Source of the DNA: an uncultured bacterium
Lineage (GTDB): Bacteria > RBG-13-61-14 > CAYWKU01
Assembly: GCA_964459325.1 (NCBI GenBank)
Contig: CAYWKU010000007.1
Location: 83,422-147,421 of the forward strand
Reading direction: 5' to 3'
DNA length: 64,000 bases
Shown: in pieces, positions 31,927 through 58,901 of the stretch
Position numbering within the stretch: the first letter of the stretch is position 1
Layout: the number at the start of each line of letters is the position of its first letter
The notes under the pieces: generated by a model
What the model saw: only the letters and a program-made list of their open reading frames with translations
Database searches by the model: none
Told to the model about the DNA's origin: nothing
Translations under genes and position numbers: made by a program

Positions 31927-33333
31927 TCACAGCCTCAGTATCTTCAGCCCCGCGCGCGCCTGCCTGATAACTTCCCCCGGACTACGGATGGTTTTCAGCC
32001 TGCGCAGGATATATGCGGGGTTGCGATAAAAGCTTCGATACGCTCCCAGGGTAAGCTCTATCAACTCCTCCCGGGACAGGTTCTCCTCCCAAACCGGCGC
32101 CTGAAAATCCTCTCGCGGATTGAGGGCGAACTCCAGCCACGGGTCGCCGTTCCACAAACCCTTCTCCTTGCCCATCCGGTAAAGGTCGGTACCCGGAAAC
32201 GGCATAAGCAGCGAAAAATGCACGTAATCCGGCTTGAGCTCCCGAGCCAGCCGTACCGAGCGGCGCACGGTGTCGGAGGTTTCTCCCGGTGAGCCCACCA
32301 GGAAGTACGCCAGAGTGCGTATCCCGGCCTTCCGGGCGTTCTCAAAGCCGGCGCGGGCGTCGTCCACTGTTATTCCTTTCCGGAGGGTTTTCAATATTTC
32401 CGGGTCGCCGGACTCGACGCCCAGGTGTACCCGGTCGCAACCTGCCCTTTTTAGTGCTTCTGCCAACTTGATGTCGAGGTCGGTGACCCGAAGCCTTACG
32501 TCGAAAGTCACTTTCAACCCGCGCGACAATATAAGCTCGGCGATTTGCATGGCCCGCTCGCGGTCGGTGGCGAAATTGTCGTCGTAGAAAAGTATCTCCC
32601 GGATGCCAAGCCGCAGGCATCGCTCCATCTCATCCACCACGCTCTCCGGCGAGCGTGCCCTGAATTTCCTCCCCAAATGAGGCCGGTCGCAGAAAAGGCA
32701 GTTGTAGGGGCAGCCACGGCTGGACATCATGGTGGTAACCGGGTTGGCGCGGGCCAGCACCGAGGTGTAAACCCGAACATCGGTAAGTTCTCTTGCCGGG
32801 AACCGTAGCTCGTTGAGGTCTTCAATAAAGGACGGCGGAGGCCCTCTGTGTATCTCGCCATCCGCACTCCATACCGCCCCGGAAGCCTCATCGGGCCCGA
32901 CATTATTCCGAAGACAATCCACGAGTGCCGGAAGGGCCCTTTCGCCCTCTCCCGTAATCACGTAATCAACTTCCGGCAAAAATGCGGTTTCTTCCGGGTA
33001 GATGTGGGGGTGTGGCCCGCCCAGCACTGTCACCGCTCCGGCTTCTTTAGCCATCTCGCAGACCACCAACACGTCCGGCATGGTGAAGCTGAGCGCGGTA
33101 ACTCCCACGACATCGGGCGCGAAGGATGAGATTTTTTTCCGAATGGTCGCGTCGTCCAGGCCGGGCGCCTGGGCATCCAATATTGCAACCTCGTCCCGCC
33201 CGAGCCGCTCGAGTTCACCGGCCAGGTAAAGCAGGCCTAGCGGCGGATTCGCTCCCCGACCCGATTCGACCTTCTCGGGAAGAATGGACGGTATCATGCG
33301 CCCGGAGGGCGGATGTAGGAGAAGAACTTTCAC
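31927..33333 (-). CDS. B12-binding domain-containing radical SAM enzyme
   Basis: GTG start at 33333 overlapping the upstream stop (GTGA); N-terminal B12-binding-like region (VKVLLLHPP...PLGLLYLAG), radical SAM motif SRGCPYNCLFC. Confidence 0.8.
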   Translation of the reverse strand: MKVLLLHPPSGRMIPSILPEKVESGRGANPPLGLLYLAGELERLGRDEVAILDAQAPGLDDATIRKKISSFAPDVVGVTALSFTMPDVLVVCEMAKEAGAVTVLGGPHPHIYPEETAFLPEVDYVITGEGERALPALVDCLRNNVGPDEASGAVWSADGEIHRGPPPSFIEDLNELRFPARELTDVRVYTSVLARANPVTTMMSSRGCPYNCLFCDRPHLGRKFRARSPESVVDEMERCLRLGIREILFYDDNFATDRERAMQIAELILSRGLKVTFDVRLRVTDLDIKLAEALKRAGCDRVHLGVESGDPEILKTLRKGITVDDARAGFENARKAGIRTLAYFLVGSPGETSDTVRRSVRLARELKPDYVHFSLLMPFPGTDLYRMGKEKGLWNGDPWLEFALNPREDFQAPVWEENLSREELIELTLGAYRSFYRNPAYILRRLKTIRSPGEVIRQARAGLKILRL

Positions 33334-34187
33334 GGCTTGTAACGCTTGCCGATAAGGTCGGCCACCACGCCGATGGCCAGCACCTGCAGGGCCGCCACCA
33401 CCAGCCCTATGAATCCGACGCCCCAGCCTATGGCTCCAAGGTAGTGCCATGCTAAACCTACCGGTACGGCGGCGATAATGAGGATTACCGCCGCCGGCAG
33501 AAACACCCGCAGCGGGTTGAAGTAAACCAGCGTCCTTATTATCAAAACCAGCATGTTAAGAGTATCGTGGAAGGGGCGGAACTTGCTCCAGCCCTTGCGC
33601 TTGCGGTAGTTGATGGGAAGATACTCCACGTGAAACCCCTCGGATAGAAAAACCAGGGTGATGGTGGAGGTGAAAGAAAATCCCGACGGAAACAGGTTGA
33701 TATATTTGAGCGCCAAATCGCGGCGGAAAATCCTCAACCCCGAGTTAAGGTCGGGAATGTGAGTCTCACCCAGGTAATTCGCCATCCCGCCGATGGTTTT
33801 CTTAACCGCCCTTCGCAGCCACGATTCCTCCACGTGACGTCCCGTTCGCGCTCCAACCACCATGTCCGCCTCCCGGCTCATTTCGACCAGCTTCGGTATG
33901 GAGCCTTCGGGGTAGGAAGCGTCGGCGTCTATTATCAGCACCCGGTCGTAAGCGGCGCTCCTTACGCCAGTTTTCAACGCCGCCCCGTAGCCCTGGTTGT
34001 GGCCGTGGGAAATTACCCGCACTCCATCGGCGGTCGCGGCCACCGAGGCGGTGTCGTCGGTGGAGCCGTCGTCCACAACAAGAATCTCGTGCTCAATGCC
34101 GCCGAGGGCGGAATTTATCTCCTCCAGCACACCGACGATGCCGGAGGTTTCGTTGTATGCGGGCACTATGACGCTTACGCCTTCCAT
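33330..34187 (-). CDS. GT2 polyprenyl-phosphate sugar synthase-like glycosyltransferase (ArnC/GtrB/DPM1-like)
   Basis: ATG at 34187 with GGAGG upstream (ORF-track extension to 34241 overlaps the upstream gene); VSVIVPAYNE, VVDDGSTDDT, C-terminal two-helix membrane anchor. Confidence 0.8.
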   Translation of the reverse strand: MEGVSVIVPAYNETSGIVGVLEEINSALGGIEHEILVVDDGSTDDTASVAATADGVRVISHGHNQGYGAALKTGVRSAAYDRVLIIDADASYPEGSIPKLVEMSREADMVVGARTGRHVEESWLRRAVKKTIGGMANYLGETHIPDLNSGLRIFRRDLALKYINLFPSGFSFTSTITLVFLSEGFHVEYLPINYRKRKGWSKFRPFHDTLNMLVLIIRTLVYFNPLRVFLPAAVILIIAAVPVGLAWHYLGAIGWGVGFIGLVVAALQVLAIGVVADLIGKRYKP

Positions 34188-34188
34188 T

Positions 34189-36045
34189 CTATTTGCCTCC
34201 GGGGAGCTCGAAACGCGGGTTCTGCCAGAAAAACCGGTCATGGCCCGGGTATTTACGCGGCCCGACCTTAAAGGTTACCGTAGCCTTATTGAAAGATGCC
34301 GGAAGTTTTATCGTTATGGGCGTCGGATGGCAAACCCCTTCACCCGGCACGGCTTCCCCCCGGAAGGTCTCCGACCATTTCCCGGAAGAAAGGTTTACTG
34401 AAAAATCAACGCCGTCCGAAAGTGAAGGGTCGCATGACGAAGGCGCGAGCCGGGCGGCGGTTTTAAATGCCCTTTTGCCGTCCACGTGCATATCGGGGAA
34501 GCGGATGACCGACTCGGCTTTCTTCCTCGAATGATGAAGAATGCCGAACTCCGCCTCGCCGCCGAAATTTATAATCTCTGCGGTCGGGTTTTCCCACCGG
34601 CGGGTGGATTCCGGCGGCAGCTCGGCTTCATTCAGCATGTTCGCCAGAGGCATTGTTTTCGGAGGCCCGCCCCGTAACCACACCTCCGTGCCGTGCAACC
34701 GGTAGGCCGGAAACAGATTTTCGCCGCCGCTTCGCTTATTTATGGCGTCCTTAACGTAACCTACCTCCGGGTGGGATGTATCGAGTATGAATGCGCAAAC
34801 ATTCTCCGAATCTATAAATTCCCCCGGCGGCGGCTCGTTGGCCCCGACCGGGTGGAAGGTCTCGATGCCGTCGTAGTAGCGCAGGTATCCCACCGCTGCC
34901 GAGTTATAGGCTTTGCAATCGTCCTCTATCCTTTCGGAGACCATACGGGTAAGATTATAAAAGAAGGGGCTGCGCTTTTGCATGAAGCGGGCGTCGCTCC
35001 AGGCATAATAAGCGACAATAACAAGAATCAGCGCCCGGATGGCGTTTTTGCGGTACTCGTCCAGTACCGGCAGTCCCATCAGTATCGCGACGGGCGGGGC
35101 GAAGTAAAGCGCCGCCAGCGGATGAGTTTTTACCAGTTGCGGCGCAAGTATCAGGAAAAACAGCGGAATCAGCGCGTAAGCAATGAGCGCCGACGCGCTT
35201 TTCGGCGCCGCCCGCCAGGCCGCCGGGAGCCTGTGGACTCCCACGAAGACCAGCACCCATCCCGGACCGACTCCCACGAAGATGTTCGACAGAAAATCCA
35301 GCCACCCGCCCGGTTTCATGAAAGCCGCCGGGTCGCTGCGGGTTGCCGCGTGGCCCAGCACCGGTATGACCCCCACCACCGACTTCTGCCATATGAACAC
35401 GGCGGCAAGGGTTGCGGCGGCGGCAATGCCCGGCAGGAGGATGAACTTGAGGCTCCGCAGCTTCCTTTCTTCAAAAATCCCCGCCACCAGAACGGCGGGC
35501 AGGGCAAGGTATACCGTCCATTCGTACAACCCGCCGAGGGCTGCGGCGACTGTCATAATCGCCACTCCCTTCCGTGTAACCCGGCGGGTATAGCCGTAAA
35601 TCAACAGCGAGATGAAAAAGAGCGCCCCCGGCTCGTAATTGGTGGTACGCCCCGCCGTTACCGCCATGGTCATCATGGCGAAGAATATCCCCGCCGGAAA
35701 CGCCGCCCGCCGCGTGCCCGCTCTCACAAGTGCGCCCCATAGCAGCAGAGCCGTCCCAGCCCCGAAAAGGGCGCTTACCAGTCGCGAAACCCATTCGTGA
35801 ACGCCGAAAACCGAGTATAGGAAGGCATATACCAACTGAAGCAGTGGCGGATGAGCGGCGTGGTAGAGAAATTCACCCCTGAAAAACCCGAAGCCGGATA
35901 TGCCGCGGGTTACACCGAGGCCGTAAAAAAAATGAGACAGCGCCAGGGACTCCTGGAAAGCGCTGTCCAGCGGCAACACGAACGGGCCGGTCACATTCCA
36001 CAGTCTCAACAGCAGGCAGACCCCGGTAATCAGGAAGGCGCTCAA
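34189..36045 (-). CDS. GT-C fold membrane glycosyltransferase (family 39/83-like, ArnT/PMT-type) with C-terminal soluble domain
   Basis: About 10 predicted transmembrane helices in the first ~400 aa followed by a hydrophilic domain; placed next to an ArnC-like GT2. Confidence 0.6.
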   Translation of the reverse strand: MSAFLITGVCLLLRLWNVTGPFVLPLDSAFQESLALSHFFYGLGVTRGISGFGFFRGEFLYHAAHPPLLQLVYAFLYSVFGVHEWVSRLVSALFGAGTALLLWGALVRAGTRRAAFPAGIFFAMMTMAVTAGRTTNYEPGALFFISLLIYGYTRRVTRKGVAIMTVAAALGGLYEWTVYLALPAVLVAGIFEERKLRSLKFILLPGIAAAATLAAVFIWQKSVVGVIPVLGHAATRSDPAAFMKPGGWLDFLSNIFVGVGPGWVLVFVGVHRLPAAWRAAPKSASALIAYALIPLFFLILAPQLVKTHPLAALYFAPPVAILMGLPVLDEYRKNAIRALILVIVAYYAWSDARFMQKRSPFFYNLTRMVSERIEDDCKAYNSAAVGYLRYYDGIETFHPVGANEPPPGEFIDSENVCAFILDTSHPEVGYVKDAINKRSGGENLFPAYRLHGTEVWLRGGPPKTMPLANMLNEAELPPESTRRWENPTAEIINFGGEAEFGILHHSRKKAESVIRFPDMHVDGKRAFKTAARLAPSSCDPSLSDGVDFSVNLSSGKWSETFRGEAVPGEGVCHPTPITIKLPASFNKATVTFKVGPRKYPGHDRFFWQNPRFELPGGK

Positions 36046-36069
36046 TATAAGGTCGCGGGCGCTCGTTTC

Positions 36070-36987
36070 TCAATCCTCCTCGAAATATTCCTTCAGGCCT
36101 TCTTTCAAGGGTATCGTGGGCTCCCAGTCCAACTCGTTTTTCGCGCGGGTACAATCCAGTACGTTTTCTTTAACGTCCACAGGTCGGGAAGGTTGATAAT
36201 CAACCCGAGCCCGTATCCCCGAAACCTCCTCCAACAGTCCCACCAGCCTTATCAATGAGGTTCCTTCACCGGCGCCGATGTTGTAAATCGTCGAGGGCGG
36301 GGTGTCGATTATGACTTGCGCGTAAGCCCTTGCCACGTCGATAACGTGAATGTAGTCCCGTGTAATTTCCCCGTCCCCCCATATTGTGATGGTGTCCCCG
36401 CTATTTATGGCCTGTGCGAAGGCGCTTGCGGCTCCCAGCCCCTTACTTGGGTCTTGCCTTATGCCGTAAGGGTTTGAAGCGCGGAGGGCCACCCATTTAA
36501 GACCGTAAAGCTGCCCGCAAAGGGCTAGGTATTTTTCGACAGCCAGTTTATGCATCCCATACGAGCAGACCGGCTCGGTGGGATGATTTTCGACAATAGG
36601 CAATTTTCGCGCCGGGCCGTAGACCGTGCCTCCGCTGGAAGCATAGATTACTTTCTCAACACCCGCCTCGACGGCGGTCTTAAGCATGTTCACCGTTCCG
36701 GCCAGGTTGGTTTGAATGTCGGATACCGGGTCGATGTTGGATGTGGCGGGTATAGTCGAGCATGCCAGATGAACGGCGACGTCCATGCTTTTGAGGGCGC
36801 GAACCATATCGGCGGGGGAAGTGAAATCCCCTTCCATTATCTCGACTTTGCCTTTCAGATGCTCAATGCGCCACGGGTCGGCGTCCGGAAGGTCGAGTAT
36901 CCGCACCTTCACTCCTTCTTCCACCAGAATATCGGCCAGGTGAGAGCCGATAAAACCATATCCCCCCAAAATAAGAACGGAAGTCAT
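36070..36987 (-). CDS. NAD-dependent epimerase/dehydratase (UDP-sugar 4-epimerase-like)
   Basis: ILGGYGFIGSHLADIL Rossmann motif; catalytic YxxxK (CSYGMHKLAVEK). Confidence 0.85.
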   Translation of the reverse strand: MTSVLILGGYGFIGSHLADILVEEGVKVRILDLPDADPWRIEHLKGKVEIMEGDFTSPADMVRALKSMDVAVHLACSTIPATSNIDPVSDIQTNLAGTVNMLKTAVEAGVEKVIYASSGGTVYGPARKLPIVENHPTEPVCSYGMHKLAVEKYLALCGQLYGLKWVALRASNPYGIRQDPSKGLGAASAFAQAINSGDTITIWGDGEITRDYIHVIDVARAYAQVIIDTPPSTIYNIGAGEGTSLIRLVGLLEEVSGIRARVDYQPSRPVDVKENVLDCTRAKNELDWEPTIPLKEGLKEYFEED

Positions 36988-38255
36988 TAAATCCTCCGAT
37001 AAATACTTTCCATCTCGCTCGCGTGCTCTTCCATGCCGGGGACATGCATGGCACCAGGCTCCGGGGTTCCGCCGGTCAGCAGCTTTCGGAGCAGGTTGCT
37101 CAACGCTTCGGGGTCTCTTCTAGGGTAATAAAGACCCGCTTCTCCCGCGACTTCCTTTATTCCGGGCACGTCGGAAGCCACAAGCGCGGTTCGGGTCTCG
37201 AGCGCGTACAGAAGCACCAGCGGGGAGTTTTCTGCCCACAGGCTGGGCGCCGCCAGTATGTCGGTGTTTTCGTATATTCGGGCTATTTGTGTGGGGTCGA
37301 AGGTTTCCCGGTAATTCAGGGCATCGCCCAGAATTGACTTTACCTTGTCCAGGTACGCTTTTTCTTCTTCCGAACCTGTTGCGGCATACACGTTTAGCTC
37401 CCAGTTGCTCAAATCTTTCAATGCGCTCAATGCCTCGGCCAGAACGTGCAGTCCCTTGTGCCGCCTGAACTGGCCGATGAAGGTTATGCGAACCTTGTCG
37501 GAGGAACGTCGCTCAAAGCCCGAAAAAAGCGTTTTATCTATGCCGAAGGGCAGCTTTACGCCTTTCGGCCCCCATTTCGTGTACGGCCCGGCAAGGGCTC
37601 GGGTGGGAAATATAAGCCGGTCGGCCCGTTGAAGCACGCTCCGAAGATATTCAAGACGGTTTCGCATCCGCTTCAGCCCCGGGGATTTCAACTTCTCCAC
37701 CCTCTTTTCGGGTGGAAGCATCCTCAAGAAGGGTCGCTTCCAGCGCGAAATCCCTGCATAAGGGTCTTCGCCCGCAAAGCACGAAGCGCAGCGTATCCCG
37801 GCCATCGGCCCCGGGCATTCTTCGCCTTCCGGCGTGAATAATTGGCCCCATGCGCACATGTAGTGAAAGTCGGTGACGGTTACCACGGTTTTCGCCCCGG
37901 CGGATTCGGCAACCGGAAGCATTCCGGCACTCAAACCTCCCAGCAGGTAAGTGAAATGCGCCACCTCCGGCTCGAATCTGTTCACAACCTCCGCAAATCC
38001 CTCGTCAATCGTCGGGTTGCGGTAATGATGTTCGTAGTCGTTGTGGACGGAATAGGTGTTTCTGATTGTATGCACGGTCACATCGCCGTCGTAACGGGTG
38101 GATATTTCAAACTCCTTTCCCGGAGAATCCGTCCGGGTAAAGATTTCCACTTCATGACCCCTTTTCGCCAACGCTCCCGCCAGCCAGCGCGTATAAGTTT
38201 CTGTTCCCCCGAACTTTTCGGGCGGGTAACCGTGTACGGCGAGCATTACCTTCAA
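36987..38255 (-). CDS. Glycosyltransferase family 4 (GT-B fold)
   Basis: N-terminal MKVMLAVHGYPPEKFGGTETY typical of GT4; C-terminal domain with the conserved E-x7-E region; overlaps neighbours. Confidence 0.75.
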   Translation of the reverse strand: MKVMLAVHGYPPEKFGGTETYTRWLAGALAKRGHEVEIFTRTDSPGKEFEISTRYDGDVTVHTIRNTYSVHNDYEHHYRNPTIDEGFAEVVNRFEPEVAHFTYLLGGLSAGMLPVAESAGAKTVVTVTDFHYMCAWGQLFTPEGEECPGPMAGIRCASCFAGEDPYAGISRWKRPFLRMLPPEKRVEKLKSPGLKRMRNRLEYLRSVLQRADRLIFPTRALAGPYTKWGPKGVKLPFGIDKTLFSGFERRSSDKVRITFIGQFRRHKGLHVLAEALSALKDLSNWELNVYAATGSEEEKAYLDKVKSILGDALNYRETFDPTQIARIYENTDILAAPSLWAENSPLVLLYALETRTALVASDVPGIKEVAGEAGLYYPRRDPEALSNLLRKLLTGGTPEPGAMHVPGMEEHASEMESIYRRI

Positions 38256-39850
38256 CGCCGACCTCCCCGCGATGCTTCGAGCGCCTTACGGGCCTGCATG
38301 ATGGCTCTTCGTATTTGCGCATCGGGCGGGCTCAACCTGGAAGCCTCCTTGAAATTATCCAGCGCCTTTACGAATCTCCCCATCTTCAAATGTGCCAACC
38401 CCGCGTTTTCAAGCGGCTCCGCCCATCCCTGCCTGAGCTCGGAGGCTTTGAGGAAATAAAAAGCAGCGCCCCGGTAATCCTTGAAGCGGAAATGCAGCTT
38501 GCCGAGCGCATTGAAAGCGTTGGCCTGCTCGTAATCGGTAGGAGCGCCTATCTCTACCGCCCGGTTAAGGTGAGGCCAGGCGGAAACGTATCGCAGCTCG
38601 TCCTTGTACGCCAGGCCCAGGTCGTATCGGGCGCGGAACTTATCCGGCGATACCCGGACGCTTCGGCGGTGAACGGTTATCTTTGACGACCAGGTGGAAG
38701 CCACTTCGACGGCAGCCATGAGAAAAAGAGAGCATACCACGACAACTAAGGCAGGCGCCGCCTTTCGCTTGAAGGATGACGCCTCATTCCCGAAAAGCTC
38801 CCCCCCACCGAAAGCGATTATGCCCACTAACCCGACGGCGGGCATGTAAACCCTGTGCAAAAACGCAAGGTCCATGAGGGGAATTACGCCGGATTCCGGC
38901 CCGAGAGCCACCGGCATCCATATCATCAGAAACAGGGCCGGGCGGTTTTTGCGCAGCTTGTACGTCAAAATCCCCCAAACCGCTATTAACCCAACGCCCG
39001 AGATAATTACTTTCGCATCGAGCAGGCTTGTCCTCAGCACGGGATTCTGCTCAAGGGCCAAGCCCGTCGGCCACAGGAATTTTGCGATGTATCCCGGTAT
39101 GACTGTCAATTGGGTAAGGAAATACTCGTAAGCGCCGGGCAACTCCGATGAAGGGCCGAGGTACACCAGATGCCCCGAGCGCAAGACGGCGTAAATTACG
39201 AAAATTCCTCCCGCCGGAAGAACGGCTTTTATTCTTTCCCGTCCCTTCCCGTACAGAAAAGCGAGCACACATACCATTATCGGCGCCACCGCGCCGCTTT
39301 CCTTGCTCAATAGAGCGCCTACGCAAGCCAGCATCGAAATCCATAAGTACAGGTTCCTCCCCTTCCGGAGGTGCTCCAGGTATGCCAGCGCAGCTCCCAC
39401 CGTGAACATGGTGGCCAGCACCGCCGACCGGGCGGATATGTAAAACACTGAAAAGTTGATAAGCGGATTGAGGCAGAAAATCGCACTCGCCGCCAGCGCG
39501 ATTGCATCCGGGTTTTCGCGTTCGGCGAAAAGCGCCCTTACCAAGAGGAAAACCAGCAGCGAGGTTATCACGTGAAGCACGCCGTTTACCGCCTCGAAAG
39601 CCGGCGCATCGAAACCCGCGGCCTGAACGTTGGACCAGTTAAGAAGAACGGTTATCGCCCGGAAAGGACTTTGCAAAATAACGGAAACCGGAGAGCCCAC
39701 CAGCGCGGCGTTTTCGAGTATGGAAGGGTGGTCGTCCAGCACGAAAACGCCGCCCGATGCCAGGTGCACTATAAGGCCCGCAACCAGGGCGGCCAAAAGC
39801 GCGAGGTATGCAAATTTATCCCGAGGCGTCCTCACCGGCGCTTCCCGCAC
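38252..39850 (-). CDS. Polytopic membrane protein with C-terminal TPR repeats (TMTC/DUF1736-like, GT-C-type)
   Basis: About 10 N-terminal transmembrane helices followed by TPR-like repeats (YDLGLAYKDELRY, AFNALGKLHFRFKDYRGAAFYFLKASEL, ENAGLAHLKMGRFVKALDNFKEA). Confidence 0.6.
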   Translation of the reverse strand: MREAPVRTPRDKFAYLALLAALVAGLIVHLASGGVFVLDDHPSILENAALVGSPVSVILQSPFRAITVLLNWSNVQAAGFDAPAFEAVNGVLHVITSLLVFLLVRALFAERENPDAIALAASAIFCLNPLINFSVFYISARSAVLATMFTVGAALAYLEHLRKGRNLYLWISMLACVGALLSKESGAVAPIMVCVLAFLYGKGRERIKAVLPAGGIFVIYAVLRSGHLVYLGPSSELPGAYEYFLTQLTVIPGYIAKFLWPTGLALEQNPVLRTSLLDAKVIISGVGLIAVWGILTYKLRKNRPALFLMIWMPVALGPESGVIPLMDLAFLHRVYMPAVGLVGIIAFGGGELFGNEASSFKRKAAPALVVVVCSLFLMAAVEVASTWSSKITVHRRSVRVSPDKFRARYDLGLAYKDELRYVSAWPHLNRAVEIGAPTDYEQANAFNALGKLHFRFKDYRGAAFYFLKASELRQGWAEPLENAGLAHLKMGRFVKALDNFKEASRLSPPDAQIRRAIMQARKALEASRGGRR

Positions 39851-40181
39851 TTTTTTCGGCTTCCAATATGGCGATTGTCTGTGACAGGGATTTTACCTGG
39901 TCGGTCATCCGGGACATCCGCACCGAGAAGTGAATGTTAATTAACGCGAGGAACAACAGGGCAAACAGAAAAACGGTGGTGGAACTGGAGACCGCGCCTA
40001 TCAGGTGAGTCAGCCAGACCTGAAGGTCGTACCATGCGGCCAGCACAATTACGCCCGCTCCCACCGCCAGCCACAGTATGCTGAACTCCTCCTTCAGCTT
40101 CCTCCGGCGCACCAGCTCGACAATAGCCACCAGCAGCATCACTGCTACCGCCAGCGCAAATATCCTTTGTCTGGGCGTCAT
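39816..40181 (-). CDS. Small membrane protein, DUF2304-like (commonly paired with polyprenyl-phosphate GT2 genes)
   Basis: Start taken at internal Met (MTPRQRIFALAVAVMLLVAIV); 2-3 transmembrane helices; immediately downstream of an ArnC-like GT2. Confidence 0.5.
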   Translation of the reverse strand: MTPRQRIFALAVAVMLLVAIVELVRRRKLKEEFSILWLAVGAGVIVLAAWYDLQVWLTHLIGAVSSSTTVFLFALLFLALINIHFSVRMSRMTDQVKSLSQTIAILEAEKSAGSAGEDASG

Positions 40182-40194
40182 ATTCCACCTCCTT

Positions 40195-43059: not shown

Positions 43060-43065
43060 GCGAGT

Positions 43066-43719: not shown

Positions 43720-43743
43720 TCACCCCGCGTTTTAAACATACTA

Positions 43744-48046: not shown

Positions 48047-48051
48047 CTTTT

Positions 48052-48942
48052 TCAGTTTTCACTCCGTTTGAAAAATGCCCATACGCCCAGCGCCACGGCC
48101 ACCGAAACGATGGTAAGAATCCGGTAGGCGAAGGCGGCGGTGGCGGTGACGGCAATAGGAGCGCCGCCGATACTGGCGACGTAAGCCCACGTCACGTCCC
48201 TTACCCCCAGCCCTCCCGGCACCAGCGATATCAACCCCGCCACGAAACCCACGCTCAACGCCGGCAGAGTGATGAAAAACGGCTCCACCGTCTGGCCCGT
48301 GGCCCTTATCATGCAGTAAAAGCTTGCCGCTCCCATCGTCCATACGCCGGCGGTGCACAAAAAGTTCAATGGCATTCGGGACGGGGCGAACGCCGCCCGC
48401 AGCCCTTCCAGGAACCTCGCCCCGAAGCTTGTCACGCGGGCGGAGACGATAATCCCCAGCCCTACTATTACCGCCGCCACCGTAGCTATGATGAACACCA
48501 GCGGGTTGATTTCTCCCATTCCCGATTTTCCCCATCCCACGTACCAGGCGAAAACCGCCGTTACCAGGCCGGTGAAAATCAGGTCAAGTATCACTTCCCC
48601 GCCGGAAGCCGCCAGCGACCTGGTGGCGGGCACCCGGCGGCCCTTCATCAGGCCGATTTTGGCCCCGATGCCCACCCCCTGAACCATGGAGGCATAGTTC
48701 AGAAGGAACCCGGCCATCACCACCTCCAGCACGTGCCGGTATCTCATCTCAGGCGCAGCCAGCGACCGGAACCTGAGGGTGGCCATGGAAAGGTTGAAGA
48801 CCCAGAAGACCAGCGCCAAGCCCACCCACGCCGGAGAAAGACCCTTGACGGTATCCAGTATTTTCCGAGGGCCCACGTGATAAACCAGGTAAACCAGGGC
48901 CGCGATAACCACTACCATAAGGAACGGTCGAAGCCACTTCAT
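48052..48942 (-). CDS. Flippase-like membrane protein (LPG-synthase TM-region family), second copy
   Basis: Start taken at internal Met (MKWLRPFLMVVVIAALV); about 8 transmembrane helices. Confidence 0.5.
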   Translation of the reverse strand: MKWLRPFLMVVVIAALVYLVYHVGPRKILDTVKGLSPAWVGLALVFWVFNLSMATLRFRSLAAPEMRYRHVLEVVMAGFLLNYASMVQGVGIGAKIGLMKGRRVPATRSLAASGGEVILDLIFTGLVTAVFAWYVGWGKSGMGEINPLVFIIATVAAVIVGLGIIVSARVTSFGARFLEGLRAAFAPSRMPLNFLCTAGVWTMGAASFYCMIRATGQTVEPFFITLPALSVGFVAGLISLVPGGLGVRDVTWAYVASIGGAPIAVTATAAFAYRILTIVSVAVALGVWAFFKRSEN

Positions 48943-48988
48943 GGCCTGTTCCAGGAGGTTCGGTTTGCCGGTAGCTTCCTCGCTCAAT

Positions 48989-50140
48989 TCAAACCGCCCT
49001 TTTCCTTCGGAATCTCGATACAAGCTCCCGGGCCAACTCATCGCCGATGGCCCGCCTGTTGAAGCGGGTCTCGAAAGCCTCCCGCCCTCCGGCGGCCACC
49101 TTTTCCCTCAGCTCGCTTTCATTGTGGAGTTTCCTCACGGCATCCGCCAGCGCTTCAGGGTCGCCCGGTTTGACCAGCCACGCGCTTATTCCGTGCTCAA
49201 GGGCTTCCCGGGCGGCGGGTGTGTCGGCGGTTATCAGCGGCTTGCCCATCGCCAGCACGTTGAACACCTTGCAGGGAATAACACGGGACGCTTTCGGGCC
49301 GTCGGAAAAAATGCCCAGGCAGATTTCGGAGCGGGCTATGCGGTCGGCAAGCTCCGGGTAGTTTATCCACTGCCTTTCCAATGTCACCCGGGCGTTGCTT
49401 TCATCGGCCATCCTTTTGCAGTATTCCCATGTGGGGCCGTCGCCGATAAGGGTGAAGCTTATATCCTTTTCGTCTTCCAGAAGTTTTGCCGCCTCGATTA
49501 TAACCTCCGCCCCGTGCAGGGGGAGGAAGCTGCCGAAAAACAGCGCTTCCCCCGCGTTGATTTCAGGCGGCTCCTCGGGGAGGCTGAAATAATCTTCCTC
49601 CGCTCCTACAAACACCCTTATAAACTTGTCCGCCGGGACATTGAAATTACGGCTGTAATATTCGACGTGCGCCCCCGTGTCCAGTAGCACCGTGTCGGCG
49701 ACCCGGGAGGAGGCGCCGTCCAGGAATTTCAGAGCCTTTGCCTTTATGGAAGAGGAAGCGGCCAGCTCCCTGTCCTCCACCACCGCCTCGTACACCGAAA
49801 GAAACGCATCCAGCACCACGGGTTTTCCTTTCAAGGCGGCTAAAACCTTTGCGAGGAAAACGTCCAGGTGTCCGGGGTACCCCACTATTACCAGGTCGTG
49901 CGGCGGCATTTTCACCAGGTACTTCCACGAAAGCACTATCCATGCGATAACGAGCTTTACTCCGGCTTTTATCGCGCCCCACAGGCCGGTAACCGCTCCC
50001 GCCCTGGAGGCGGAATCTCCCCACGCCGGGCGGTGGCACTCGATAACCCGGCGCCCCGCATCTCTAAGGGCTGCGGAAACCACGTTGTTGCGGGGGTAGC
50101 CTTCGCCGGTGGAGTAAGTGCCGAAGTATACAATATTCAT
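48989..50140 (-). CDS. Glycosyltransferase, GT-B fold (GT4-like)
   Basis: MNIVYFGTYSTGEGYPRN N-terminus and overall two-domain GT-B-like architecture; weaker motif support than the other GT4 genes. Confidence 0.55.
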   Translation of the reverse strand: MNIVYFGTYSTGEGYPRNNVVSAALRDAGRRVIECHRPAWGDSASRAGAVTGLWGAIKAGVKLVIAWIVLSWKYLVKMPPHDLVIVGYPGHLDVFLAKVLAALKGKPVVLDAFLSVYEAVVEDRELAASSSIKAKALKFLDGASSRVADTVLLDTGAHVEYYSRNFNVPADKFIRVFVGAEEDYFSLPEEPPEINAGEALFFGSFLPLHGAEVIIEAAKLLEDEKDISFTLIGDGPTWEYCKRMADESNARVTLERQWINYPELADRIARSEICLGIFSDGPKASRVIPCKVFNVLAMGKPLITADTPAAREALEHGISAWLVKPGDPEALADAVRKLHNESELREKVAAGGREAFETRFNRRAIGDELARELVSRFRRKRAV

Positions 50141-50146
50141 GGCTTA

Positions 50147-50827
50147 TTAATCGAAAAAGCGATACCTGACTATGCACCATAATGCCGTTATGCCGTCTGT
50201 CCAGTGAATTTTCTTACCTTCTTCGTAATCCCTGCCGTAATAGGAAATGGGCACTTCGTAAATGCGAACCTTCCGGCGGGCGAATTTGGCGGTAAGCTCC
50301 GGCTCGATGCCGAACCTTTCCGAGCGCAACTTCATGTGCTTTATAACTCCCGTGCGGAAGCACTTGTAGCACGTTTCCATGTCGGTGAGGTTGAGGTTGT
50401 TGAGCACGTTGCTGAAAAGTGTAAGGAACCTGTTGCCCAGGTAGTGCCAGAAAAACATCACCCGGTGCGGCCCGCCCAGAAACCGCGAGCCGTAAACCAC
50501 GTCGGCGTAACCGTCCCTTATGGGGCCGAGGAGCTTTTCGTAGTCGCGGGGGTCGTATTCCAGGTCGGCGTCCTGGATGACGATAACGTCTCCCCTGGCC
50601 TGCTCGAAGCCGGTGCGGATGGCGGCGCCCTTGCCACGGTTCTTGTCGTGCCGGAAAGCCCTGATTCCCTCGATTTTTTCAACCACTTCCCACGAGCCGT
50701 CGCTGCTGGCGTCGTCAACCACCACGATGTCCATTTCATCCTCGATAGGACTTGACCTGACCCTGCGGATTATTTCCTCCACCGTGTTTCGCTCATTGTA
50801 GATGGGGATGATGACCGACACCAGCAT
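50147..50827 (-). CDS. Glycosyltransferase family 2 (soluble DPM1-like)
   Basis: Start taken at internal Met (MLVSVIIPIYNE), where stop and start overlap as TAATG; VVVDDASSDGS, QDADLEYDP motifs; no membrane anchor. Confidence 0.8.
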   Translation of the reverse strand: MLVSVIIPIYNERNTVEEIIRRVRSSPIEDEMDIVVVDDASSDGSWEVVEKIEGIRAFRHDKNRGKGAAIRTGFEQARGDVIVIQDADLEYDPRDYEKLLGPIRDGYADVVYGSRFLGGPHRVMFFWHYLGNRFLTLFSNVLNNLNLTDMETCYKCFRTGVIKHMKLRSERFGIEPELTAKFARRKVRIYEVPISYYGRDYEEGKKIHWTDGITALWCIVRYRFFD

Positions 50828-52377
50828 TACATCTTCTCCTTCTTGTAAATATATATGATTCTTCCCTCTTTTTTTACCATGGACGCCGGCTTCCAGCCCG
50901 GAGGCGCGTTGTGGGGATTCAAAAGCGGCGCCATTTGAGGATGAAACGCCCGGATAAGGGTGCTGTCCGCGATTAGGTAATCGACATCCCATCTTCGCGC
51001 GTATTCCAGCACCTTCCGCAGAGGCTCATCCGGCACCGGTACCCTTTCGGCGTTTGCGAAGAACGCCACGTAAGGCTCGCGGGTCATTACCTTCACGCTG
51101 CGACCTTCGGATTGGCGGGCTATGAATTCCGCCGCTGCCCGTTGAGGTTTCACCCATTCGGCGTCCGGGTCGGGGCCGTATTTTACTGAGGCGACGAGGG
51201 GTATCACCACGATTAATAACGCTGCAACCCCCGTTTTCTTCCCGGCCATATCGAAAGCATGGGCGATTCCCCTTCCGGCCACGATAGCTCCGAGCGGCAC
51301 CAGCGGAACGTAGTAGCGGGGGCTGGTGCCCGTCATCGCCTGCAGGCCTACGGCGGGTATCCACATGCTTAAAAGGTAGCCTATGGGTTTCCCTTCCCCG
51401 GCGCCTTTCCTGAGTATGCCGAACAGCCCCAATCCCATGGCGGCGGCAAAAACGGGCGGGAAAATGACGCTCAGGTCTCCGTAAGCGTCATCCAAGCGAG
51501 TGAAGGCGCGCCTTACAACCGCTCCGGCGTTATTACCGAGAAACTCGATTGTACCCATTTCTTCGGCGGCCACCTGAGCTTTCAGCCTGCCGGTTTCCGG
51601 GTCGATTTTACCTTTTTGCCGTTCATGTTTGTCGGGGTTGGATATGATGCGATACATCATCCCCTGCTGGCCGGTAAGCCGCCAGCTTCCCTGCTCAAAT
51701 TTCAGGTAGACAACGTAAGGCGCCGAAAATATCAACACGCCCGCAATGAAGGCCGCCGTTATGATAATCTTTCTTTTGCGTCCTTTAGACGACGCAAACG
51801 CCCATATCGCCGGGATGACGGCTTCGAATATTCCCGCCACCCGGGTCAGGTATGCCAGCCCCAGGGCTGCGCCGGAAAAGCTCCAGCGTCTTGCGGAATT
51901 TTTCTCCAGCGCCGACCACCCGATGAAAACCCCGCCCATCAATAGCGCCGTGTAAAGGCTTTCTGTAAGCGCCAAACCGCCGTAATGGACCATCTGTGGA
52001 TGGAAAGCCACGATAAGGGCCGCGCCCACGGCGGCTGTATCGCCGAAGGTGCGCCTTGCGAGCAATCCCGTCAGGACTATCGCCGCTCCCGCCGCCAGCA
52101 CCGACACCAGGCACCCCGCTATTTCCAGATTGCCGGTAAATATGCCAAAGAAAGAGCTTGCGGCGGCGAAAAGGGGTTGATAGTATCCCGTCTCGCTGCC
52201 CATCGGCACGCTCAGCCCGCCTTCGGCGATACGCCCGGCCAGAAGCAGGTAAAGGCCGCTGTCCGGGTGGTATATTTTCCAGGGGGAAGTAAGGGCGCGT
52301 AAAAAAACGCCCGCCGCCGTTATGGCGGCAAGCTTTCCCGGAAAGGAAAGCAGGAGGCTGTAAGCGCCTCTCCTCAT
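50827..52377 (-). CDS. GT-C fold membrane glycosyltransferase (family 39/83-like, ArnT/PMT-type)
   Basis: About 11 transmembrane helices with a C-terminal soluble domain; adjacent to two GT2 genes. Confidence 0.65.
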   Translation of the reverse strand: MRRGAYSLLLSFPGKLAAITAAGVFLRALTSPWKIYHPDSGLYLLLAGRIAEGGLSVPMGSETGYYQPLFAAASSFFGIFTGNLEIAGCLVSVLAAGAAIVLTGLLARRTFGDTAAVGAALIVAFHPQMVHYGGLALTESLYTALLMGGVFIGWSALEKNSARRWSFSGAALGLAYLTRVAGIFEAVIPAIWAFASSKGRKRKIIITAAFIAGVLIFSAPYVVYLKFEQGSWRLTGQQGMMYRIISNPDKHERQKGKIDPETGRLKAQVAAEEMGTIEFLGNNAGAVVRRAFTRLDDAYGDLSVIFPPVFAAAMGLGLFGILRKGAGEGKPIGYLLSMWIPAVGLQAMTGTSPRYYVPLVPLGAIVAGRGIAHAFDMAGKKTGVAALLIVVIPLVASVKYGPDPDAEWVKPQRAAAEFIARQSEGRSVKVMTREPYVAFFANAERVPVPDEPLRKVLEYARRWDVDYLIADSTLIRAFHPQMAPLLNPHNAPPGWKPASMVKKEGRIIYIYKKEKM

Positions 52378-53303
52378 CCGGTCTCGTCCTCGACCCGCTC
52401 GAACCGCAGCAGGCTTATCTGCTCGGCCACCAGCCCCAGCAGAAACACTATCACGCCGGTCACCAACAGCAGCAGGGCGAGGTTTGTGAACCGGTGCCAG
52501 AGAATGAAGGTGTAAAGGTAATAGAGCACTCCGGCCAGAACGAAAAATATGCTTATGGGAAGAAACACCCTCATCGGCGCAAACAAAGTCGCCACTCTCA
52601 AGAGAATGATGAGAAACCTCAATCCGTCCCGGAAAGGGCGAATCTTGCTCTGACCGATTCGGATGTCGAAAGTTAAAGGTGCGAAGTCCACGCTGTACCC
52701 GGCCCTTATCATGGACAGGGTGATGGTGGTGGGATAGCTGAAGGAGTTGGGCAAAAGATGCAGAAAGCCCCGGGCCACTTTGCGGCGCATGACCCGGAAA
52801 CCGCTGGTCAGGTCATATATACGCCTTCCGGCAATGTAGCCTGCGAAGGAGTTCATCGCCTTGTTGTAGAGTTTCCTGCCGCGCGTCTGCACCGTGGCGT
52901 CGTCGCGGGCGCCGACAATCATGTCGTATCTTTCAATCCGCTCCACCAGTTTGGGTATGGCCTCGGGCGGGTGCTGGCCGTCGCCGTCCATGAGTAACAC
53001 GAACTCCCGGTTAGCATGGCGAATGCCGGTTTTGACCGCCGCTCCGTTGCCTTTATTGTAGGGGTGTTTTATCAAGCGGATGTCGGCGTCTTCGAAAAGG
53101 GATACCGTGCTATCGGAGGAGCCGTCGTCCACCACGATTATCTCGGCCTCCGGCCCGACGACTTCCCTCACCCGCCGGATAACGCTGCCGATGTTTCCCT
53201 CCTCGTTGAAAACGGGCATCACGACGCTGAGCTTCTTATAGTCGAAACGACTTTTTTCGGGGGAGGTTTTTGCTTCGTTCACTTTTTCGTTTTTCTCATC
53301 CAT
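52374..53303 (-). CDS. GT2 polyprenyl-phosphate sugar synthase-like glycosyltransferase
   Basis: Start taken at internal Met (MDEKNEKV...), alternative at ~53219; LSVVMPVFNEE, IIVVDDGSSD, MDGDGQHPP motifs; C-terminal two-helix anchor. Confidence 0.8.
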   Translation of the reverse strand: MDEKNEKVNEAKTSPEKSRFDYKKLSVVMPVFNEEGNIGSVIRRVREVVGPEAEIIVVDDGSSDSTVSLFEDADIRLIKHPYNKGNGAAVKTGIRHANREFVLLMDGDGQHPPEAIPKLVERIERYDMIVGARDDATVQTRGRKLYNKAMNSFAGYIAGRRIYDLTSGFRVMRRKVARGFLHLLPNSFSYPTTITLSMIRAGYSVDFAPLTFDIRIGQSKIRPFRDGLRFLIILLRVATLFAPMRVFLPISIFFVLAGVLYYLYTFILWHRFTNLALLLLVTGVIVFLLGLVAEQISLLRFERVEDETG

Positions 53304-54667
53304 CCGGCCAGCTCCATTCCACGAGAGAGTAGATTGACGGCCCCCCCGGCTCCACCGGCCCGGGCAAGCCTTGAAACGACGTAAGAAGGCCTGGCGTAAA
53401 AACTGAAATGTGCGGCTCTCAGCGCCTTCCTCAACTTTTGCGGCGTCCAATATTCGTCCATCACTGCCGGTCGGGCCAGGTCGGCGTCGAAGGGGTTCAT
53501 GGCGTCGGTCATTCCGAGCCAACCTTTTTTTAGAGCCTCGTCGTAAAGCGGGGTTCCCTCCACCGGCGACAAAACGCTGAACTGGGCCCAAGTAACCCCC
53601 CACCTTGCCGCGAACCGGGCTGTTTCTTTAACGTGCTCCAGTCTTTCACCCGGTATTCCCACCAGAAAGTAAGCCAAAACGTCCATTCCCGCTTGCCGGG
53701 TCATGGTTATAGCCTTCCCGATATCGGACGAGGAAGTGCCCTTTCGCAGGAACCGCAGGCTTTTCTCGTGGATGCTTTCGATGCCGTAGGAAACTATTCG
53801 ACACCCCGCCCGGCTCATCCAATCAAGCATCTCCGGGTACACGTCATCTACACGGGCCTCGCACTTCCATCGGATGTTAAGTCCTTCTTCGATGATGCGT
53901 CGGCAGATTTCAATGACCCGCTCGGCGTCCAGCGTGAAAAGGTCGTCATAAATTATAACGGAACGTACGCCCGAATCGCAAGCAATTTGCCGCAGCTCCT
54001 CCAGCACCCTGTCGGCCGAATGAAGCCTCGGTGCGGAGCCAAAAACGCTTTTGTCGCAGAAGATGCAGGCATGAGGACAACCGCGACTCGTGAAAAGCGT
54101 GGTCGCCGCACCCGGCCCGAGAGGGGGATAAGAATACCGGGAGTGCTCCAGGAGTCCGCGGGCGGGATACGGGAGGCCGTCGAGGTCACCGGAAGGAGAC
54201 GCAGGCGGAGTGTGTCCTTCAGGTGTCACCACTCCGTGTAATGCGAAAAGGTCGCCGTTGTTTTGTAACGTTTCCAGCAGGTTTGCAATAACGCCCTCCC
54301 CTTCGCCCAGGACGACAGCGTCGGCGGGAAAATCGCCTTCGGTTGTGAAGAATTCCGCCCCCCGCATGGTAACATGAGGGCCCCCGATGACGACGGTTTT
54401 CCCCGCGTTTTTCGATATTTGTGCGGCACGGCAGGTTAAGTCCCATGTCGGGGTCATGCCGGTAAGCGCCGCGACCTTCGCGTTTGAAGACCGAACGCGG
54501 TTTTCAAATTCCTTCCAGCTCAGGCCGAGTGCCGGAGCATCGACCAGCTCGGCATCATGGCCCGCCTCCATGCAAACCCCTGCCAGATAAAGCAGTCCAA
54601 GAGGAGGCACAACGAAAGGCGGCTTGCGGCCTTCGCGGGCCGGAGGCACTGCAAAAAGAACTTCCAT
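53279..54667 (-). CDS. B12-binding domain-containing radical SAM enzyme
   Basis: N-terminal B12-binding-like domain (PLGLLYLAG, VVIGGPHVT), radical SAM motif SRGCPHACIFC. Confidence 0.8.
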   Translation of the reverse strand: MEVLFAVPPAREGRKPPFVVPPLGLLYLAGVCMEAGHDAELVDAPALGLSWKEFENRVRSSNAKVAALTGMTPTWDLTCRAAQISKNAGKTVVIGGPHVTMRGAEFFTTEGDFPADAVVLGEGEGVIANLLETLQNNGDLFALHGVVTPEGHTPPASPSGDLDGLPYPARGLLEHSRYSYPPLGPGAATTLFTSRGCPHACIFCDKSVFGSAPRLHSADRVLEELRQIACDSGVRSVIIYDDLFTLDAERVIEICRRIIEEGLNIRWKCEARVDDVYPEMLDWMSRAGCRIVSYGIESIHEKSLRFLRKGTSSSDIGKAITMTRQAGMDVLAYFLVGIPGERLEHVKETARFAARWGVTWAQFSVLSPVEGTPLYDEALKKGWLGMTDAMNPFDADLARPAVMDEYWTPQKLRKALRAAHFSFYARPSYVVSRLARAGGAGGAVNLLSRGMELAGWMRKTKK

Positions 54668-54802
54668 CTCAAGTCAAACATGGTAGAACAGGCGGCGTCC
54701 GTCGGCAATTGAAGAAGGAGGCTCACCCTCTTAATTTATCCCGGCATCTTGTTATTTCTTTCGCAGACATCCCCCAAAATTCATTTGAAAAAAAATACAT
54801 GC

Positions 54803-58589: not shown

Positions 58590-58668
58590 ACAAGAGGCCG
58601 TTGCAGAATTATGATTTTTCGTTTGGGATGTGTTGACCTTCATCGTGCCGAAAAAGAACCCCGAATGG

Positions 58669-58717: not shown

Positions 58718-58901
58718 GGAAAAGACATTCCCGGGGAGCTACAGAAAAAAAGCCTTCTCTCCCCCTGAAGCCTGTTTTGCAACGGTCTCAACAAATAAAA
58801 AACTCCCGGCCGTCTCTTTCGGCCCGCCCTTTTTTCGTGATTTATTTTAGAAAAACAGGCTGCGGCTTTTTGTTCGGGAGGGCGAAATGCCGGGGTTTAT
58901 T

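Follow-up and report, generated by a model that had tools for sequence, protein, structure and literature searches.

The locus described here raises the question of what class-B radical S-adenosylmethionine (SAM) enzymes (rSAMs), which combine a B12-binding with a radical SAM domain (B12-rSAMs), do beside the glycosyltransferases of an envelope-glycan cluster. The cluster spans ~32 kb (positions 29876-61937) of the window, as we call the whole 64,000-nucleotide stretch analysed, which belongs to contig CAYWKU010000007.1 of an uncultured bacterium (GTDB lineage Bacteria; RBG-13-61-14; CAYWKU01). Its genes are lettered A to Z (Table 1). The original prediction had found a trio of B12-rSAM, family 2 glycosyltransferase (GT2) and glycosyltransferase of the GT-C fold (GT-C) twice, at 31927-36045 and 50827-54667, as well as a third GT2-DUF2304-TMTC-like unit at 38252-40887, and had read them as paralogous modules. 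Pfam confirms every gene named there, including the third unit, which is J-I-H in our lettering; the PMT_2 match of H lies marginally under the cut-off, and every other domain of these genes clears its gathering score by a wide margin. The internal order of the trios differs as described: in the direction of transcription the first reads GT-C, GT2, rSAM (E-D-C) and the second rSAM, GT2, GT-C (V-U-T). Our comparison suggests that the evolutionarily coherent unit is the GT2-rSAM pair and not the trio, and that this pair, which returns in no fewer than 80 species of uncultured Bacteria and Archaea, is very widespread and previously uncharacterised. We favour, with a probability of about 0.5, the reading that the rSAM tailors the polyprenyl-phosphate-linked monosaccharide made by its partner GT2, before the sugar is flipped and transferred by a GT-C. 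The locus would hold at least three units of the three-component type, in two of which the GT2 is translationally coupled to a class-B rSAM.

The evidence is comparative throughout, and the homologues come from metagenome-assembled genomes (MAGs) or uncultured enrichments. Relatives of C were collected by scanning one genome per species in a GTDB-based collection; the best 80 of the 593 candidate loci were used, and in these the rSAM is 43-67% identical to C over the full length and distributed across phyla. The proteins of this family are ~470 aa long, and at least 120 full-length database matches share 46% identity or more. Bacterial hosts are Brocadia and other Planctomycetota, Deltaproteobacteria, Nitrospirota, Chloroflexota/Anaerolineae, Omnitrophota, FCPU426, Patescibacteria (Buchananbacteria, Parcubacteria, Saccharibacteria), Firestonebacteria, Eisenbacteria, Schekmanbacteria, Muiribacteriota, Sumerlaeota and Polyangia, and the archaeal ones are Altiarchaeota, Woesearchaeota, Iainarchaeum and Methanosarcinales MAGs. 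The closest named relatives of C are Deltaproteobacteria MAGs (54-55% identity), and Candidatus Brocadia pituitae is the only named complete genome among the relatives.

The conserved feature of these loci is the coupling of the rSAM to a GT2. In 53 of the 75 informative C-type loci the rSAM starts where a GT2 ends, and 51 of these GT2s are of the D/U type. The two genes are often spaced by -4 nt; in most other cases the spacing is -1 to +4 nt. In another 11 loci one to three genes separate the rSAM from a D/U-type GT2, which is encoded on the same strand no more than 4.6 kb upstream. By independent gene calls the two genes overlap by 4 nt in Brocadia (L002/L003) and Altiarchaeales (L004) and are 5 nt apart in a Patescibacteria genome (L005); in the window the stop codon of D and the start codon of C share the letters GTGA, as read directly in the sequence. 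The pair of the Altiarchaeales locus lies among housekeeping genes, with no other glycan gene nearby. Only three putatively viral contigs (IMG/VR) encode relatives, all of them weak (34-40% identity), so this is not a phage-borne system in general. On two putatively viral IMG/VR contigs (L172/L173, 3364-7335) a B12-rSAM overlaps a GT2 and is followed by a second, C-like rSAM. A different GT2-rSAM pairing exists in the window itself, where the Glyco_trans_2_3-type GT2 B overlaps the SPASM rSAM A by 4 nt (29876-31923); a similar GT2 stands beside a SPASM rSAM, a relative of A at 188 bits, in the Patescibacteria locus (L005, 12942-15890).

The same linkage of rSAM and GT2 is shown by two rSAM families and two GT2 architectures. 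The family of V consists of proteins of 457-462 aa that are 40-81% identical among the matches listed, and its order is rSAM then GT2, with an overlap of 25 nt in the window and in its relatives L170 (64% identical) and L171 (80% identical), and of 4 nt in L088. More distant V-type rSAMs adjoin pairs of a GT2 and a DUF2304 protein of the GacI/GacJ type (L088, L089, L091, L097, L099), and methyltransferases, a second B12-rSAM and rhamnose-pathway genes are found near them. One protein (P0201, 671 aa, on a Logan contig of 2469 bp) joins a V-type B12-rSAM and a class-I SAM methyltransferase domain in a single chain, a fusion which supports the view that the rSAM is functionally linked to the methyltransferases that are often its neighbours.

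How then are the two trios related to each other? We compared the cluster proteins by all-against-all BLASTP and aligned the profiles of small E and T alignments. The expected paralogy holds for two of the three enzyme classes, since the rSAMs C and V (34% identity over 455 residues, E 8e-67) and the GT2s D and U (38% identity, E 6e-63) are reciprocal best matches. It fails for the GT-Cs: E and T give no BLASTP match at E <= 0.01, and the profile-profile comparison has a probability of 1.3% (E 0.039). The weak profile alignment sits where both proteins match PMT_2, and the two appear to be linked only through this family. Nor are the trios copies of one module, for C and V belong to separate families and have nearer relatives in other phyla than in the window. 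In a neighbour-joining (NJ) tree these families are each monophyletic and are sisters relative to W, Y and Z. In the joint alignment members of the C family are 45-86% identical to each other and those of the V family 38-83%, compared with 31-43% across the two families; W is 22-26% identical to both. From the separate monophyletic sister families, with higher identity within than between, we infer that C and V are ancient paralogues. A quick NJ tree does not separate the GT2 partners of the two rSAM types into clean monophyletic groups. Over the whole set of 54 pairs GT2 and rSAM distances correlate with r = 0.82, a value reached by none of 2000 Mantel permutations, although most of the signal is due to close relatives. 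Since the GT-C of the second trio is dispensable, as described below, and the trios are not duplicates, it is the GT2 and the rSAM that form the coherent unit.

The best solved relatives of D are ArnC, the dolichyl-phosphate-mannose (Dol-P-Man) synthase DPMS of P. furiosus and GtrB, the last aligned over the full length; D shares the C-terminal membrane anchor with these polyprenyl-phosphate glycosyltransferases. By a crude scan, D and U have three C-terminal hydrophobic segments each and S has none; the 230-aa product of J also has none, as the lone scanned segment lies upstream of its preferred start. For curated assignment we used the NCBIfam equivalog models, each with its own score cut-off. 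The best models of D are AglJ, PpgS, Dol-P-hexose transferase and ArnC, and for D, U, J and S together they are the same four and PgfS, all scoring below their cut-offs. At the family level, D, U, J and S are thus predicted polyprenyl-phosphate glycosyltransferases.

All five B12-rSAMs (C, V, W, Y and Z) exceed the PF02310 cut-off, and the CxxxCxxC motif of the radical SAM cluster is invariant in both coupled families (C208/C212/C215 in the C family, C197/C201/C204 in the V family). The best NCBIfam models of C are BchE (172.4 bits, cut-off 481), HpnJ (171.9 bits over positions 84-463 of 472, cut-off 577.6) and AprD4 (NF033070, 137 bits, cut-off 500), and those of V are BchE (173.4 bits), AprD4 (NF033070, 142.2 bits) and HpnJ (132.6 bits). 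With scores this far below the cut-offs, we rejected C or V as BchE, HpnJ, HpnR, PhpK, AprD4, BzaD or another curated equivalog. An AlphaFold2 (AF2) model of C has a mean predicted confidence (pLDDT) of 90.2 and shows an N-terminal domain of alternating strands and helices. Its best PDB match is AprD4 (6fd2; template modelling (TM) scores 0.72/0.75, 25% identity), followed by TsrM, MgmA, OxsB, CysS and TokK. Sequence profiles rank the solved structures similarly, with AprD4 closest at 151.9 bits over the radical SAM core. In their source annotations members of both families are called 'BchE', 'YgiQ' or 'radical SAM protein' (P0015, P0017, P0020, P0027, P0140-P0142 and others). One viral-metagenome study reads K04034 'bchE' hits as heme- or chlorophyll-related auxiliary genes (PMC13452462), and such viral calls may be class-B rSAMs of the C/V kind.

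We propose that the GT2 would load a sugar onto polyprenyl phosphate at the cytoplasmic face, as its homology indicates. The coupled class-B rSAM of the E-D-C and V-U-T units would then tailor the lipid-linked sugar, which is suggested by the conservation of the pair and the repeated linkage. A class-I methyltransferase may often modify the sugar further, judging from its frequency among the neighbours and from the P0201 fusion. The LPG_synthase_TM proteins may flip the donor; one of them, Q, passes the TIGR00374 flippase-like cut-off. In the last step the GT-C would move the sugar to a presumed extracytoplasmic acceptor. It is a reasonable inference that each module adds a different modified sugar, as the original prediction had supposed. 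There are precedents for tailoring sugars on lipids: MoeK5 methylates the sugar of a phosphoglycolipid and ArnD deformylates a lipid-linked sugar. In addition, HpnJ works downstream of the GT2 HpnI, and the target of Cds is a hexose lipid head group (PMC13459092), and polyprenyl-phosphate pentoses are epimerised by DprE1/E2-type enzymes (or ORF13) in three-component systems (PMC11127046).

As for the chemistry, C-methylation is the most likely reaction, at roughly even odds, with deoxygenation and ring rearrangement as the alternatives. Methylation is favoured because most characterised class-B enzymes are annotated as methylases (PMC13459092) and because it needs no partner enzyme. A ring contraction of the HpnJ kind is less favoured, since in the hopanoid pathway it is preceded by HpnK deacetylation and no such deacetylase is found among the neighbours of the pair. 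A dehydration of the AprD4 kind is also less favoured, since it calls for a reductase, and genes for short-chain dehydrogenases/reductases (SDRs) are not consistent neighbours of the pair; AprD4 itself needs the partner reductase AprD3. A broader proposal, that the pair is a so far unrecognised system of Bacteria and Archaea in which radical chemistry on polyprenyl-phosphate monosaccharides gives C-methylated, deoxygenated or carbocyclic donors, out of reach of any nucleotide-sugar pathway, for delivery to the cell surface by GT-Cs, is one we put forward only tentatively, as it seems to us rather less probable than the tailoring step itself. Under this proposal radical SAM tailoring would become a fourth component of three-component glycosylation, widespread in CPR bacteria, DPANN and Altiarchaeota archaea, anammox bacteria and further uncultured anaerobes.

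The neighbourhood of the pair gives a picture of what else may take part. We ran Pfam on the two genes downstream (107 proteins) and the two genes upstream (98 proteins) of the GT2-rSAM pair, 205 proteins in total. Downstream we find LPG_synthase_TM (17) and class-I methyltransferases (17), then PMT_2 (15), GT2 (9), Radical_SAM (7) and PA14 (7), and upstream TPR families (up to 9), GT2 (8), PMT_2 (7) and methyltransferases (5). A polytopic GT-C-like protein lies within 5 kb of the pair in about 36 of 79 loci, a count that is approximate because the in-house iterated model behind it was unconverged after five rounds. GT-C, flippase-like and methyltransferase genes are frequent but optional neighbours. 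A single operon of the Patescibacteria locus (L005) encodes GT2, rSAM, LPG_synthase_TM and methyltransferase, and beside it lies a membrane protein with nine hydrophobic segments and a PMT_2 score of 23.4 bits. In the window E, T and X exceed the PMT_2 gathering score. E has about six hydrophobic segments and a C-terminal extracytoplasmic domain of ~250 aa that matches no recognised family, and sequence searches of E and T against solved structures returned nothing usable. Orthologues of E adjoin D/C-type pairs in four other loci (L007, L008, L029 and L081), where B also follows the C-type rSAM and the whole order G-F-E-D-C-B is kept; in L007 J-I-H is contiguous too. In Candidatus Brocadia (L002, 9586-15116) an 848-aa protein with PA14 and PMT_2 domains and an 801-aa PA14 protein adjoin the pair, which suggests that carbohydrate-binding variants of GT-Cs exist here. 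According to the in-house model, four to five GT-C-like polytopic proteins lie within ~3.4 kb of the pair in an Altiarchaeota locus (L013) and in an uncultured archaeon (L018).

Several observations weigh against the proposed tailoring of a GT-C donor. Gene adjacency alone cannot separate a lipid-linked sugar from a later intermediate as the substrate of the rSAM. The GT-C T is intact in L170 and absent in L090, and in L171 (8075-8601) it is replaced by two open reading frames (ORFs) of 126 aa and 49 aa between U and S, which suggests a recent loss or decay. A GT-C is also missing beside many other pairs, such as that of the Altiarchaeales (L004), so GT-Cs may not use the tailored lipid-sugar as donor in every case. 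No flippase domain of the GtrA, SMR, MATE or Wzx type was found by Pfam among the ORFs of the cluster. The correlation of GT2 and rSAM distances is only r = 0.19 for pairs with more than 40% rSAM divergence; co-inheritance is therefore supported only at shallow depth. A concatenated D+C query returned no GT2-rSAM fusion, only ~470-aa proteins of single architecture among the top 120 matches, in a search that was not exhaustive. None of the B12-rSAMs of the cluster reaches the cut-off of any curated equivalog. Moreover, AprD4, the best fold match, is a sugar diol-dehydratase reported not to bind cobalamin (PMC12931638), which makes the assignment of C as a methylase insecure.

The alternative that survives best, although we consider it unlikely, is that the rSAMs tailor some other substrate, such as a nucleotide sugar, a finished glycan or a protein or peptide acceptor, and that the adjacency to the GT2 reflects a shared pathway only. 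It would fit the closeness of C to the AprD4 fold, and characterised sugar-modifying class-B or related rSAMs such as GenK and AprD4 act on soluble glycosides. Many more distant class-B rSAMs occur where no GtrB-like GT2 directly adjoins them, in glycan clusters with abundant GT4 and SDR genes. It is less easily reconciled with a membrane-anchored GT2 of polyprenyl-phosphate type coupled to the rSAM in 53 of 75 loci, often by a 4-nt overlap, and with pairs that are kept where the rest of the cluster is not conserved (L002, L004). The minimal conserved unit, furthermore, contains neither a nucleotide-sugar enzyme nor a candidate peptide substrate.

Somewhat less probable again is that the pair makes an end product, with the GT2 glycosylating a membrane lipid or polyprenyl phosphate and the rSAM forming a stable head group, for example a cyclitol, instead of a donor for GT-Cs. 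HpnJ is one of the two best NCBIfam models of C, and both HpnJ and Cds are proposed to remodel lipid-bound hexoses; the many pairs without a recognisable GT-C (L004, and only about 36 of 79 with one within 5 kb) and the loss of T in close relatives point the same way. The HpnJ score, however, is far below the cut-off of 577.6 and equals that of BchE, and an HpnK-type deacetylase is not among the frequent neighbours. PMT_2 GT-Cs and flippase-like proteins, which are among the commonest ones, fit the role of a donor. The C family is also shared by Archaea and Bacteria at ~47-50% identity, which counts against a membrane-lipid product: polyprenyl phosphates are common to both domains, whereas their core membrane lipids differ.

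It is very improbable that the rSAM modifies the isoprenoid carrier, by methylation, cyclisation or saturation of the polyprenyl chain, and not the sugar. Many lipid-modifying rSAMs (HpnP/HpnR, GrsA/B) are class B (PMC13459092), and HpnR and a ladderane-associated model are among the sub-threshold matches. Such lipid-modifying models score no better than sugar- or tetrapyrrole-modifying ones, though, and there would be no obvious reason for a strict coupling to a glycosyltransferase. Finally, an origin of both trios from a single three-gene module, duplicated inside the cluster and followed by divergence, can practically be dismissed, and a recent duplication was rejected outright: C and V are the nearest paralogues of one another in the window, as are D and U, but the rSAMs fall into separate monophyletic families with far closer relatives in other phyla, the GT-Cs are not detectably related by BLASTP or profile comparison beyond PMT_2, the gene order is inverted around the GT2, and GT2-then-rSAM (C-type) and rSAM-then-GT2 (V-type) are each conserved separately in other genomes.

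The preferred reading, in which the rSAM acts on the sugar of the polyprenyl-phosphate donor, extends a logic that is partly known. In three-component systems (GtrA/GtrB/Gtr*, ArnC/ArnT, CsbB/YfhO and the Citrobacter pentofuranose system, PMC11127046) a GT2 synthase and a GT-C are likewise encoded together. Our locus differs in that LPG_synthase_TM proteins are the only flippase candidates, a class-B rSAM is coupled to the GT2 and there are several units per locus. The unit J-I-H has the same architecture of soluble GT2, DUF2304 activator and GT-C as PpgS/Rv3632/Rv3779 and as GacI/GacJ/GacL, the latter described for the N-acetylglucosamine (GlcNAc) side chain of the group A carbohydrate (10.1101/180810). 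In contrast to these, J reaches only 102 of the 370 bits that the PpgS model requires, H combines TPR repeats with a marginal PMT_2 match, and elsewhere the GT2-DUF2304 pair is directly coupled to a V-type B12-rSAM (L088, L089), which is absent from the Gac/Ppg systems.

Known systems with an rSAM show partial likenesses. In HpnI/HpnK/HpnJ and Cds a GT2 puts a hexose on a lipid and an rSAM, of class B in the case of HpnJ, is then proposed to remodel the sugar. Here there is no hopanoid or glycerol dialkyl glycerol tetraether (GDGT) context and no HpnK-like deacetylase, the GT2 is of the polyprenyl-phosphate type, and the GT-C and flippase-like neighbours suggest a donor and not an end product. 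No hopanoid gene (shc, hpnH, hpnG or hpnK) turned up in the ORFs that were scanned; against the HpnH model (cut-off 225) A reaches only 45.7 bits, and against HpnB (cut-off 379) D reaches 23.8 bits and U 29.6 bits. AprD4 resembles C in fold and length and acts on a sugar ring, but its substrate is a soluble pseudodisaccharide, and it is reported as non-cobalamin-binding whereas C scores 86.5 bits on the B12-binding domain. GenK, Fms7, MoeK5 and Fom3, which we liken to C by description and not by sequence, share the architecture of B12-binding and radical SAM domains, and a sequence similarity network groups MoeK5 with Fom3 and HpnJ (PMC9204698). GenK, Fms7, MoeK5 and Fom3 come from the secondary-metabolite clusters of actinomycetes, in contrast to the envelope glycan loci of uncultured anaerobes seen here. 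Mycobacterial assembly of lipoglycans from polyprenyl-phosphomannose and decaprenyl-phosphoarabinose (PPM/DPA) uses Ppm1, several GT-Cs and cytosolic GT4s, with no Wzx or Wzy. It combines GT4s, polyprenyl-phosphate sugar synthases and several GT-Cs as our cluster does, a likeness of gene content only and not of orthology; here, however, the host is an apparent diderm and six radical SAM enzymes have no mycobacterial counterpart. We found no description of a class-B rSAM as coupled partner of a polyprenyl-phosphate sugar synthase in the open-access literature, including recent reviews of B12-rSAMs and lipid-modifying rSAMs. What is known already is the three-component logic of GT2 and GT-C and the GacIJL-type unit; what appears to be new is the class-B rSAM as an integral partner of the synthase.

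If the rSAM does act on the lipid-linked sugar, this would be a new enzymatic step in a well-studied route of surface-glycan modification. It would predict unusual (C-branched, deoxy or carbocyclic) surface sugars in Patescibacteria, DPANN, Altiarchaeota and anammox bacteria, and would provide a working hypothesis for two large and tightly conserved class-B rSAM families. As the pair consists of two genes of together ~2.3 kb, the idea is directly testable.

The remaining gene content of the cluster is given in Table 1. Genes were identified from an ORF listing of the window and by Pfam scans with the gathering scores as cut-offs.

Table 1. Genes of the envelope-glycan cluster (window coordinates). 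Pfam gathering scores: PMT_2 26.1, B12-binding (PF02310) 32.1, DUF2304 25.5 and LPG_synthase_TM 33.4 bits.
Gene	Assignment	Position	Strand	Evidence
A	radical SAM/SPASM enzyme	29876-30955	-	Radical_SAM 40.8 and SPASM 33 bits; 4-nt overlap with B
B	GT2 of Glyco_trans_2_3 type	30952-31923	-	Pfam; two C-terminal hydrophobic segments; 3 nt downstream of C
C	class-B rSAM, C-type, module 1	31927-33333	-	B12-binding 86.5 and Radical_SAM 110.6 bits
D	membrane-anchored GT2, predicted polyprenyl-phosphate sugar synthase, module 1	33330-34187	-	Glycos_transf_2 98.6 bits
E	GT-C (PMT_2), first gene of module 1	34189-36045	-	PMT_2 39.5 bits
F	NAD-dependent sugar epimerase/dehydratase (SDR)	36070-36987	-	Epimerase 165 bits
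G	GT4 glycosyltransferase	36987-38255	-	Glyco_trans_1_4, Glycos_transf_1, Glyco_trans_4_4
H	GT-C-like membrane domain with C-terminal TPR repeats (TMTC-like), module 2	38252-39850	-	PMT_2 25.6 bits (0.5 below cut-off); several TPR families
I	DUF2304 small membrane protein (GacJ/Rv3632 family), module 2	39816-40220	-	DUF2304 81.7 bits
J	soluble GT2 of GacI/PpgS type, module 2	40195-40887	-	Glycos_transf_2 86.4 bits
K	GT4 glycosyltransferase	40884-42101	-	Pfam
L	LPG_synthase_TM (MprF-flippase-like) membrane protein, candidate flippase	42088-43059	-	61.7 bits
M	thymidylate-kinase-like P-loop protein	43066-43719		Pfam 28.8 bits; dTMP kinase model far below cut-off
N	748-aa polytopic membrane protein, ~13 hydrophobic segments	43744-45990	-	no family match
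O	GT4 glycosyltransferase	45987-47129	-	Pfam; start trimmed to fit 379-381-aa orthologues
P	class-I SAM methyltransferase	47123-48046	-	Methyltransf_23/11/25
Q	second LPG_synthase_TM flippase-like protein	48052-49041	-	72 bits; TIGR00374 52.9 bits (cut-off 43.2)
R	GT1/GT4-like glycosyltransferase	48989-50140	-	Pfam
S	soluble GT2, 226 aa	50147-50827	-	Glycos_transf_2 122.4 bits; best model AglJ 128.7 bits, below cut-off
T	GT-C (PMT_2), module 3, variable member	50827-52377	-	PMT_2 48.3 bits
U	membrane-anchored GT2, module 3, 309 aa	52374-53303	-	Glycos_transf_2 115.4 bits
V	class-B rSAM, V-type, module 3	53279-54667	-	B12-binding 57.9 and Radical_SAM 87.9 bits
W	third B12-rSAM, directly upstream of V	54803-56317	-	B12-binding 48.6 bits
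X	fourth PMT_2 GT-C, divergently transcribed	56826-58589	+	PMT_2 29.4 bits
Y	divergent B12-binding-domain protein, weak rSAM match	58902-60269	-	B12-binding 36.4 bits; Radical_SAM 17.4 bits, below cut-off
Z	fifth B12-rSAM	60378-61937	-	Radical_SAM 61.8 and B12-binding 51.7 bits

In total the cluster has five B12-rSAMs, one SPASM rSAM, five GT2s and four PMT_2 GT-Cs. The genes of the original prediction are thus all real but its list was incomplete, missing W, Y, Z, A, B, S, X, L and Q among others. Its view that this is not a single O-antigen-type locus agrees with the several units of donor synthase and GT-C, and Pfam finds no Wzx, Wzy, ABC-transporter or initiating phosphoglycosyltransferase domain among the ORFs of the cluster. 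The genes are tightly packed: D/C, U/T, K/J and B/A overlap by 4 nt each and V/U by 25 nt, and D-C-B-A forms a single four-gene block. In both L170 and L171 S is called with the same length, 226 aa. The window gave no match in Rfam and tRNA scans, cobalamin riboswitches included.

In the stretch with W, X, Y and Z (54000-62000) the GC content drops from ~0.57-0.59 to 0.45-0.49. The syntenic relative L170 lacks this stretch and has an FHA protein ahead of V; in L171 the stretch is different. The cluster thus seems to have been extended here by a variable and possibly acquired part that brings in three B12-rSAMs and a GT-C. M is kept inside the cluster in both relatives, and N is conserved in both with 52-77% identity. 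Even at E <= 5 neither Pfam nor NCBIfam matches N, and its single-sequence AF2 model is unusable (pLDDT 43); the protein is possibly a further GT-C or a polymerase. Outside the cluster, two ORFs (9079-10485, 468 aa, and 18752-19627, 291 aa) have no Pfam match at E <= 1e-4; since each overlaps long ORFs on the opposite strand, they may be no genes at all. LptF/LptG genes at 12822-15196 of the window point to a diderm host. The contig of the window is also present in the Logan assembly of SRR7048220 and as a 153-kb contig at NCBI. Directly downstream of the cluster lies a sigma-54-type two-component pair, identified by inspecting the translations.

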